Shown here in pieces: positions 28,691 to 30,133 of a stretch of DNA of 64,000 nucleotides. Each line of letters opens with the position of its first letter. Positions within the stretch are counted from its first letter, which is position 1. The notes below the pieces were generated by a model. It worked only from the letters and a program-made list of their open reading frames with translations, did not search any database and was not told the DNA's origin. The translations under genes and the position numbers were made by a program. This DNA comes from Escherichia phage vB_Eco_T-01: sequence record PQ438391.1, one strand, 5' to 3'.

Positions 28691-28984
28691 ATGAAAAAAT
28701 TTGTTTTTGCTGCAATTTTTGCTTTAGCTTCTTGTGCTGCTCAGCCTGCTATGGCAGGTTATGATAAAGATTTGTGTGAATGGTCTATGACTGCGGATCA
28801 GACTGAGGTTGAAACTCAGATTGAAGCAGATATTATGAATATCGTTGAGCGTGATCGCCCTGAAATGAAAGCTGAAGTACAAAAACAGCTTAAGTCTGGT
28901 GGTGTAATGCAGTATAATTATGTTTTGTATTGCGATAAAAACTTTAATAACAAAAATATCATCGCTGAAGTGGTAGGTGAATAA
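28691..28984 (+). CDS. sp: periplasmic Spackle protein (superinfection exclusion, lysozyme inhibitor)
   Basis: 97 aa with signal peptide; recognised as T4 Sp. Confidence 0.9.
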   Translation: MKKFVFAAIFALASCAAQPAMAGYDKDLCEWSMTADQTEVETQIEADIMNIVERDRPEMKAEVQKQLKSGGVMQYNYVLYCDKNFNNKNIIAEVVGE

Positions 28985-29610
28985 TGCTCTATCAAATGCA
29001 CAAGTGCAAAGATACATACAAATATAAAGGTGCCCAGTGTTATATCATTAATCGTGAAAACGCGGGTCCAGGTCATTCGCATCAATCACGGTTTGTATTC
29101 GTTAAAAACAATGAAATTATAGCAGTTGCTAATTACATGCTTGTGACTAATGATGTTAATCCGGTGCCTTTTACATATTATAATCTAATGGATTTGGCGT
29201 ACGATTATAATTGGTTTAATCATGACACTTTGGCTCATATCGAAGGCGTAGGATTTGACATCTCTTATTCTAGTTATTCGTTGTGTCCTATGAGCCGAGC
29301 TCATAAAGAGCCTGAATATTTTTCATTTCGTCGGCGTGTAGACTTTAAACGCAGTACAGAGTATGTCGGTGGAATCTTTGTTAAAGATAATCGAATTACT
29401 CGCATTATTTATCCTTTGGGCTGTGGTCAAAAAGATATTGACGTTGATTTAGACTTTACTGAAAACATCATTAATCATATTGCTTCTGTGTATTTTGATA
29501 TTGATCACAAAATTGTAATATGTGGATATGAATTACCATCAGAAAAACAGTCTAAAGTAAATGTTTCTATTGATGACCAAATTTTTAATGCTTTTATGAA
29601 TAAAGGTTAA
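28984..29610 (+). CDS. hypothetical protein
   Basis: 208 aa; C-terminal 13 aa identical to next ORF. Confidence 0.6.
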   Translation: MLYQMHKCKDTYKYKGAQCYIINRENAGPGHSHQSRFVFVKNNEIIAVANYMLVTNDVNPVPFTYYNLMDLAYDYNWFNHDTLAHIEGVGFDISYSSYSLCPMSRAHKEPEYFSFRRRVDFKRSTEYVGGIFVKDNRITRIIYPLGCGQKDIDVDLDFTENIINHIASVYFDIDHKIVICGYELPSEKQSKVNVSIDDQIFNAFMNKG

Positions 29611-29640
29611 TATGTATAGTTCTGAATTTTCATATTTAAA

Positions 29641-29967
29641 ATGGAAAAAATTTCATACGATTTTATAGATGAAAAGGTTTATTACAGCTTCCATGAACCG
29701 TGTTTTAATAGTGAGGTTGGGTTTATTGTAGTAAAAGACAATTTCATTTTAAAAATATATTCAGCATTAAAGGATTTTCATTACGAAAATATTAACCTAA
29801 AATTTAATAAAGAAAACGTTCGTAATTGCGCAGTAACAATTACAGGAAATAAAGGTACATGTGTTATGTTATCTGATGAAATTAATGATTTGCTAAATGA
29901 TGCAGAAAATATTACTGCGCCATCTATTGATGACCAAATTTTTAATGCTTTTATGAATAGAGGTTAA
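29641..29967 (+). CDS. hypothetical protein, diverged copy of C-terminal half of preceding ORF
   Basis: 108 aa; no clear RBS; shares 49-bp 3' cassette with 28984..29610. Confidence 0.45.
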   Translation: MEKISYDFIDEKVYYSFHEPCFNSEVGFIVVKDNFILKIYSALKDFHYENINLKFNKENVRNCAVTITGNKGTCVMLSDEINDLLNDAENITAPSIDDQIFNAFMNRG

Positions 29968-29968
29968 T

Positions 29969-30133
29969 ATGAAAACATATAAAGAATTTATCAAAGAAGA
30001 TATGGTCGCTGGAGATTCAGGTGGTAATCCTGAAAATATCTCTACTGGAACAACGTCAGGCGCTGTAGTAAATAAAGGTCCTGAACAGATTCCTAAAAAG
30101 AAAAAAGAGGAATCTAAAGAAAAAGAAGAGTAA
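29969..30133 (+). CDS. hypothetical small lysine/glutamate-rich protein
   Basis: 54 aa; AGGTTAAT RBS supplied by the repeated cassette. Confidence 0.4.
   Translation: MKTYKEFIKEDMVAGDSGGNPENISTGTTSGAVVNKGPEQIPKKKKEESKEKEE

Follow-up and report, generated by a model that had tools for sequence, protein, structure and literature searches.

A 49-nucleotide repeat at the ends of adfA and of an adfA-like gene in the anti-toxin island of a T4-like phage

In the current analysis we have examined a direct repeat of 49 nucleotides (nt) in a 64,000-nt stretch of DNA from Escherichia phage vB_Eco_T-01 (sequence record PQ438391.1), the whole of which is referred to here as the window. A comparison of a 2.1-kb stretch containing the repeat with phage records gave 539 matches at 80-99% identity, the best of them at 97.6%, and the window is assigned on its sequence to the genome of a Tequatrovirus (T4-like) phage, with the repeat in the interval between genes 41 and 61. 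The order of genes in this interval, taken from the annotated genomes of T4 and RB32, is 41 (helicase), dmd, 61.4/tifA, sp, 61.2, an extra open reading frame (ORF), 61.1 and 61 (primase). The interval has been named the anti-toxin-antitoxin island, and Dmd, TifA and gp61.2 are each known to inhibit one bacterial toxin (PMC9391042). The repeat would represent the common 3' end of two old paralogous genes of this island, namely gene 61.2 (adfA) and the AdfA-like gene that corresponds to the extra ORF.

The two copies of the repeat, referred to below as cassettes, were identified in a repeat search of positions 28000-31000 at 29566-29614 and 29923-29971. They are identical at 48 of 49 positions, and the sole mismatch, at offset 38 (A at 29603, G at 29960), replaces lysine by arginine. 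No further extended DNA similarity was found within 28000-31000, and a search of the 64-kb window with a 30-nt core of the repeat gave exactly two occurrences, against 0.00 expected from 100 shuffles. The repeat encodes 14 codons (S-I-D-D-Q-I-F-N-A-F-M-N-K/R-G) followed by the stop codon TAA, one T and an ATG. The Shine-Dalgarno sequence of the next gene lies within the last two tail codons and reads AAAGG in copy 1, GAGG in copy 2. These two codons, together with the stop and the next ATG, would make up the usual T4 translational-coupling junction, A[A/G]AGGT-TAA-T-ATG, from which the next gene starts. Two ORFs, of 208 residues (28984-29610) and 108 residues (29641-29967), consequently end in IDDQIFNAFMN[K/R]G. 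The ATG of copy 1 (29612) opens a frame of 18 codons that stops at TAG (29666-29668), while that of copy 2 (29969) opens the 54-residue gene 61.1. An initial annotation, made from the letters alone, had described a 49-bp direct repeat with one mismatch that holds a gene end, a ribosome binding site (RBS) and the next start codon, with a 54-residue ORF after the second copy and 18 codons after the first. The reading of the sequence bears out this content and these coordinates; the near-identity of the two segments is non-random and withstands alignment. The features of this part of the locus are as follows.

28984-29610, + strand: gene 61.2 (adfA), 208 residues; Pfam PF23813; map position of T4 61.2
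29566-29614, + strand: cassette copy 1, K variant; last 14 adfA codons, stop TAA, T and ATG, with embedded Shine-Dalgarno AAAGG
29612-29668, + strand: putative 5' remnant of the RB32ORF033c homologue; frame of 18 codons from the cassette ATG to TAG
29638-29641, + strand: A4 run, A5 in relatives; apparent -1 frameshift from the alignment with RB32
29641-29967, + strand: putative 108-residue remainder of the RB32ORF033c homologue, starting at internal Met11
29923-29971, + strand: cassette copy 2, R variant; embedded Shine-Dalgarno GAGG, its ATG starting gene 61.1
29969-30133, + strand: gene 61.1, 54 residues, predicted to be translationally coupled to the preceding tail

The 208-residue ORF matches the AdfA family, PF23813, over its full length (model positions 1-211 of 211; 452.8 bits against a cutoff of 27; E=1.7e-136) and sits between sp and 61.1, in the order seen in T4 and RB32. 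It is identified by this match and position as gp61.2, or AdfA, the anti-DarT factor A described in LeRoux et al. 2022, as cited in PMC11257639 and PMC9391042. An Arg-to-His replacement at R164 of RB69 AdfA lets the protein bind DarT1, His being the allele that neutralises this toxin (PMC11257639), and the AdfA of the window carries a His at the equivalent position, in the motif NIINHIAS (H165 counted from M1). The deletion of AdfA in T4 gives no phenotype against DarTG1, and T2 is without adfA (PMC11257639). A comparison of the N-terminal and C-terminal halves of AdfA for internal duplication gave E=0.59, by which similarity is not demonstrated, and no relatives of AdfA were found among the solved structures of the PDB. 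In phage APTC-EC-2A (locus L040, 896-1522) GenBank refers to adfA as 'spackle protein' beside the true spackle gene, which is a misannotation.

The shorter ORF has a counterpart in RB32, annotated as RB32ORF033c (033c below), a protein of 118 residues 'similar to gp61.2' whose start is the ATG in the first cassette. The window differs from RB32 by one indel, with TTTAAAATGG (A4, 29638-29641) in the window and TTTAAAAATGG in RB32. When the fifth A is restored, the cassette ATG is joined to the 108-residue frame (MYSSEFSYLK-MEKISYDF…); only the first 9-10 codons of the 18-codon frame match the N-terminus MYSSEFSYLK of the relatives. All five protein clusters of the family have 118 residues, and the differences among them at the first ten positions are conservative replacements, so that the 5' extension is taken to be coding. 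All 40 DNA matches listed span 316 nt against 315 in the window, and none of the 298 records carrying 033c shows the A4 allele at a match of at least 99%. The 118-residue form is thus regarded as the normal form of 033c, and the stub of 18 codons and the missing RBS of the 108-residue ORF are put down to a -1 frameshift private to this window, or to a sequencing error in the homopolymer, rather than to architecture. The initial annotation had noted that the 108-residue ORF lacks its own RBS. This holds as far as no Shine-Dalgarno sequence was found on reading the sequence before the ATG at 29641, but the lack is only apparent, since the deletion from A5 to A4 separates the gene from the RBS and ATG in the cassette that are used by the relatives. 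The 033c copy of the window probably has no activity; a weak re-initiation at Met11 might be supposed, which would at best give poor translation. The A4 run itself could be a homopolymer sequencing error.

Two further frameshifts of 033c have been noticed in records flagged UNVERIFIED, those of ESh36 (L041, ~1810-1868) and TH44 (L005, 1706-2076). One of them falls within an A-run close to the 3' end, and in the other the gene is broken up into 46 + 71 residues. Both homopolymer errors and real decay may affect this gene. In both genera that have two tails, copy 1 also carries a single-base change that weakens the Shine-Dalgarno sequence for 033c (window 29601-29607 compared with 29958-29964; loci L004, L005, L012 and L014), AGAGG to AAAGG (Arg to Lys) in Tequatrovirus and CGAGG to CGAGA (Gly to Asp) in Gaprivervirus. 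The locus has segments of T4 type and of RB32 type. The N-terminus of AdfA in the window, MLYQMHKCKDTYKYKGAQCY, is the same as that of T4 and differs from that of RB32, MFQMYKYDSYKYKKSQCY (window 28984-29050 against L002 2389-2450), while the 033c allele is RB32-like, and the locus is therefore a mosaic.

The 033c gene has a wide representation, being present in 298 records by blastn and in 332 by tblastn, in about 118 of them without adfA. Phage Pinarejo encodes a variant of 72% identity, and Gaprivervirus phages such as SP18 have genes of about 40% identity, encoding 117-119 residues, at the same position. An exhaustive profile search of 1.84 billion representative proteins revealed four true members of the family (the 118-residue, 119-residue and 125-residue types and AdfA) and one repetitive spurious match, and a word-index search of protein clusters for the 033c family gave only five clusters.

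The relationship of the short protein to AdfA, which the initial annotation had put as a weak resemblance to the C-terminal half of the 208-residue ORF, is confirmed by BLASTP against AdfA residues 110-208 (36% identity over 87 columns, E=4e-8; the reported range for this half is 33-36% amino-acid identity) and by hhalign (96 columns, probability 97%, E=1.9e-11). The 118-residue protein of RB32 matches PF23813 with 32.2 bits (cutoff 27) at model positions 113-211 only, the clusters P0001-P0005 have precomputed PF23813 matches, and the short protein has a PHROGs family of its own, phrog_4122. The alignment is confined to the C-terminal half, the N-terminal half of AdfA being absent from the short protein, and in the hhalign alignment a Cys stands opposite the His/Arg that is the DarT1 determinant of AdfA. 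For these two reasons anti-DarT activity of the short protein is not to be assumed. An AlphaFold2 model of the short protein had a pLDDT of 47.5 and was discarded as too poor for a fold search.

The initial annotation had taken the arrangement for a partial tandem duplication that looks like a recombination scar. Such a duplication, if recent, would have copied the 3' half of 61.2 and left the short ORF as a non-functional remnant. The ORF is indeed related to the C-terminal half of its neighbour, the edges of the repeat are sharp, and in this window the ORF is without an RBS and severed from the cassette ATG. Outside the 49 nt, however, the aligned gene bodies share 46% nucleotide identity and 36% at third positions, with about 8 of 18 identical residues using the same codon; synonymous sites are saturated, and any duplication must therefore be ancient. 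The high nucleotide identity along a whole segment that marks a recent segmental duplication is not seen, the only DNA repeat being the 49 nt. Both ORFs are also independently conserved as full-length genes in relatives, the shorter as a gene of 118-119 residues in about 300 records (298 by blastn, 332 by tblastn), including about 118 without adfA, and as the diverged counterparts in a second genus, and the missing RBS follows from a private frameshift. We therefore consider a recent duplication with its scar most improbable. The comparisons identify 033c instead as an old single-domain paralogue of the C-terminal half of AdfA that is independently conserved.

The peptide encoded by the repeat is more strictly conserved than the bodies that carry it. 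The nine residues DDQIFNAFM show zero amino-acid changes in all the tail-bearing ORFs found, in Tequatrovirus, Gaprivervirus, Dhakavirus-like and Mosigvirus-like loci, while the synonymous sites of the tail differ between these genus-level groups. An invariant peptide with varying synonymous sites indicates strong purifying selection, which on this comparison is shown to act on the tail peptide itself. In an AlphaFold2 model of AdfA (pLDDT 69) the tail is helical at residues 196-205 and follows a low-confidence linker, and it may, with low confidence, form a C-terminal helix.

A third protein type with the same tail has been identified, SP18 gp036 / JS98 gp030 (phrog_8539). Homology of its body to AdfA or 033c is not demonstrated, as only the tail aligns and BLASTP gives E=0.54 once the tails are removed. 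More distant T4-like loci (L019 1829-2209 and L024 1647-1982) have ORFs of 111-126 residues at the equivalent position with the related tails …DIDSQIFNYWMKK and …GSDDDIFNAWMKR; their similarity is weak or limited to the tail.

Selection on the peptide does not appear to account for all of the likeness between the two copies. Nucleotide identity is 97% in the tail against 46% in the aligned body and falls off sharply at both edges, before the Ser codon and after the ATG. All 13 identical tail residues share their codon (P about 3.6e-4 under the codon usage of the window), and peptide conservation with codon bias is therefore insufficient. Among about 25 loci compared, copy 1 and copy 2 of one genome differ at 0-2 of the 49 nt in Tequatrovirus and at 3-7 in Gaprivervirus, whereas between the two genera copy 1 differs from copy 1 at 8-12 and copy 2 from copy 2 at 6-9 positions; in the 3' 31 nt of the cassette there are 0-3 differences within a genome against 3-7 between genera. 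Genus-specific states recur in both copies, GCT TTT … AAT ARA in Tequatrovirus and GCC TTC … AAG CGA in Gaprivervirus, and include a non-synonymous N/K difference, and the Pinarejo lineage has GAT at the second Asp in both copies. Rare genomes have both copies K (PinkRuby, in which the two cassettes are identical, and vB_Eco_CP) or both R (APTC-EC-2A and ESh36). Tails within a genome are thus closer than tails at the same position in different genera, which indicates concerted evolution, and from these patterns we infer that, besides selection, gene conversion or recombination has homogenised the copies at least once in each lineage.

It has to be asked whether the identity could come without any conversion, from selection on the peptide, the A/T-biased codon usage of T4 and the constraints of the embedded Shine-Dalgarno sequence, stop and start. 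The invariance of DDQIFNAFM across genera, with a TAATATG junction that is nearly so, would be explained in this way; the preferred codons ATT, GAT, TTT and AAT are used at 73-78%, so that matches are likely at many sites, and K and R are kept apart between the copies in most genomes. The 13 shared codons are nevertheless improbable even under the codon usage of the window itself, GAC, which is a rare codon (22%), stands at the same Asp in both copies, and lineage-specific states, N/K among them, are common to both copies within a genus and different between genera. We regard selection without conversion as unlikely.

A nucleotide identity beyond what the peptide requires would also be expected of a cis-acting nucleic-acid element conserved for its own function, such as an RNA structure, a promoter or terminator cassette or a nuclease target. 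Against such an element, the cassettes have no stable or unusual fold, alone or with their flanks (z-scores -0.13, -0.96, +1.65 and -0.61), and no Rfam match; no promoter-like or terminator-like site on the + strand overlaps them and the region is not enriched in such sites; a weak 9/12 promoter-like match on the minus strand (29994-29966) touches only the last 6 nt of copy 2; and the synonymous sites of the cassette vary freely between genera. There is very little to commend this explanation.

The repeat coincides with the structural variation of the locus among related phages, in which three arrangements have been identified.

Type A: sp-adfA-[tail]-61.1; T4 and T6; ~167 records
Type B: sp-adfA-[tail]-033c-[tail]-61.1; RB32 and this window; ~180 records (298 minus 118)
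Type C: sp-033c-[tail]-61.1, no adfA; RB14, Manna and L008; ~118 records

T4 has a single cassette copy, of the R variant, with the adfA body upstream and 61.1 downstream. T4 and the ~167 records lack exactly the unit between the repeats, with breakpoints at the cassette, and their arrangement corresponds in sequence exactly to what a crossover between the two cassettes, on the 5' side of the K/R site, would leave. In type C, 033c is directly preceded by 14 nt, TAGAGGTTAATATG, that are identical to the 3' end of the R-type cassette. The copy number in the 41-to-61 interval, which the initial annotation had proposed to compare, does vary among relatives, from one (T4, T6 and the ~167 records) through two (identical in some) to three (vB_Eco_CP). 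In vB_Eco_CP (L039, 1419-1526) a tandem duplication of 59 nt, made up of TGCTGCACCT and the 49-nt cassette, gives the three copies. The suggestion of the initial annotation that the repeat could mediate deletion or duplication can be retained to the extent of this coincidence, but its reading of the locus as the scar of a duplication cannot.

The ATG of the middle copy in vB_Eco_CP opens only MCCTFY-stop, and this duplication could be a natural product of slippage or recombination, or an artefact of assembly. In genomes without adfA the sp stop is followed by T + TAGAGGTTAATATG and then by 033c (Salmonella phage Manna, L038, ~1150-1168; L008, ~2128-2145); this junction is found in the ~118 records, including RB14, and no clear microhomology that would explain a deletion of adfA is seen there. 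Small neighbour-joining trees, built from adfA and from the 61.1-61 flank, show type A genomes scattered among those of type B, a pattern that would fit recurrent cassette events and free recombination of the flanks alike. The K/R variant was tried as a tracer of deletion crossovers and is uninformative, as every adfA-only record is R.

A different history, in which the single-gene arrangements are older and the two-gene state was built by insertion, so that T4 is not a deletion derivative, is possible, though in our view the less probable one. The insertion could have come about by a cross between an adfA-only and an 033c-only genome within the shared 14 nt TAGAGGTTAATATG, or by integration of an excised 357-bp circle. 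Genomes with 033c alone carry these last 14 nt of the R-type cassette directly before the gene, and a crossover there gives the exact two-gene map; moreover, (R,R) two-gene genomes exist, the tail is R in all adfA-only records, and Dhakavirus-like loci have a single tail-bearing gene. On the other side, Gaprivervirus also has two adjacent tail-bearing genes with 033c as the second, which suggests an old tandem state, and 14 nt are a poorer substrate than 49. The present data would fit either direction of the events.

At the neighbouring dmd-tifA locus T4 has been found to recombine on homologies of 6-10 bp (Srikant, Guegler and Laub 2022, PMC9391042), and a repeat of 49 nt is therefore a plausible substrate. 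Taken together, these observations lead us to a reading which we hold to be likely, namely that the repeat is the shared tail of two old paralogues, kept by selection and homogenisation, that it acts as a breakpoint, and that the short gene of the window has been frameshifted. Selection on the peptide would keep the 49 nt alike, and gene conversion or recombination within a lineage would homogenise both copies. With the efficiency of T4 on short homologies the repeat would also act as a breakpoint, and a crossover between the copies would remove exactly the 357-bp unit, giving the T4/T6 arrangement in which an R-type adfA tail is coupled directly to 61.1. The reverse event, or crosses between types A and C, could add a gene. 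Homologous recombination in T4 is efficient at about 50 bp and above.

Several observations weigh against this reading. The conversion signal rests on few informative sites, about 4-5, and parallel shifts of codon bias between the genera could mimic part of it. The upstream tail of Gaprivervirus belongs to gp036 (phrog_8539), the body of which is not demonstrably homologous to AdfA, and the comparison of 'copy 1' between genera may not be one of true orthologues. Nearly all of the ~180 two-gene records have K in the first copy and R in the second, so that conversion across the K/R site must be rare at present. Not one adfA-only record has the K variant beside 61.1, although K would be expected from roughly one in four crossovers placed at random in the repeat, and this argues for few deletion events or for another origin of the single-copy state.

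The remaining genes of the interval flank these two.

28189-28371, + strand: dmd, antitoxin gene; order as in T4/RB32, function from PMC9391042
28373-28630, + strand: 61.4/tifA, antitoxin gene; order as in T4/RB32, function from PMC9391042
28691-28984, + strand: sp (spackle); Pfam PF25676, E=4.8e-45, its stop overlapping the adfA start
30136-31164: gene 61 primase, as in the T4/RB32 gene order

Just 5' of dmd, at 28131-28159 on the + strand, the sequence resembles a promoter (TTTACA, 17 nt, TATAGT, preceded by a TG). It is consistent with the published early promoter of dmd-tifA, and no comparable site is found between adfA and 61.1. In Gaprivervirus and Dhakavirus-like loci a homologue of TifA (61.4) follows the last tail (SP18, L004, 2159-2380; also L005 and L011-L018; 39% identity, E=1e-13), and the order of the antitoxin genes of the island is thus shuffled between genera.

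We see in the 49-nt repeat a genuine, though rather ordinary, instance of gene shuffling in phages. The family of these genes has been catalogued before, and shuffling on short homologies and concerted evolution are known principles, so that current understanding is extended and not overturned. A literature search found no published description of the shared tail, of the three-state polymorphism or of the conversion signal, and one on RB32ORF033c gave no results. The anti-toxin island, with dmd, tifA and adfA, helps to set host range against toxin-antitoxin defences. The short AdfA-like gene occurs in more than half of the Tequatrovirus records, often in place of adfA, and is a candidate for a further anti-toxin factor. 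The invariant tail of nine residues on three gene bodies points to a functional motif. The repeat also predicts a precise loss or gain of one gene, which is relevant to the engineering or passaging of therapeutic T4-like phages.

A more speculative suggestion, to which we give little credence, is that the tail and junction form a portable linker for single-gene anti-defence modules, a tail-bearing gene being movable as a small circle and the DDQIFNAFM helix serving as a functional handle. If so, such a gene could leave the genome as a circle, of 357 bp in this case, and be taken up by homologous recombination behind any other tail-bearing gene of a co-infecting T-even phage, where it would stand in frame and already coupled downstream, like an integron cassette or a mini-circle of the promoter-early stem-loops (PeSLs; considered below) within coding sequence. 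The helix would then be a handle, for example for the binding of a toxin or partner, on the otherwise unrelated bodies of AdfA, 033c and the gp036/JS98 gp030 type, and 033c would be a second putative toxin inhibitor.

The closest functional parallel of the repeat is provided by the PeSL cassettes, which are known from the hyperplastic regions of T4-type phages for modular shuffling and mini-circles (Arbiol et al. 2010, PMC2839356; Comeau et al. 2014, PMC4122927). Recombination between the repeats at PeSL boundaries leads to gain, loss and replacement of ORFs and to mini-circles (PMC2839356). The likeness lies in short conserved repeats that bound a dispensable ORF, with the breakpoints of presence and absence among relatives at the repeat, and in the small circle that recombination between direct copies of the 49 nt would excise. 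PeSLs, in contrast, are intergenic and comprise a strong sigma-70 promoter and a terminator hairpin, whereas the 49-nt repeat is mostly coding (14 codons) with a coupling junction, has no + strand promoter, terminator or stem-loop, folding no better than shuffles, and is present in two copies in 64 kb. A role as a PeSL-like promoter or terminator cassette was considered and ruled out, as there is no + strand site in the repeat and no regional enrichment.

With AdfA itself the short protein shares the tail and a match to the C-terminal half of PF23813 above the gathering score, and it differs in being without the N-terminal half and in the Cys that replaces His/Arg. The recombination of T4 on short homologies at dmd-tifA takes place in the same island and has the same outcomes, a tandem duplication, as in the 59 nt of vB_Eco_CP, and a precise deletion between repeats; those events were experimental and used microhomologies of 6-10 bp under selection (PMC9391042), whereas the repeat described here is of 49 nt, natural, long-standing and read from genome records. 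Concerted evolution by gene conversion, finally, is resembled in the short tract that is far more alike than the rest of the genes, in its sharp boundary and in the lineage-specific states found in both copies. The tract here has no more than 31-49 nt, and a strongly selected peptide and a translation start fall within it, so that selection and conversion are confounded.

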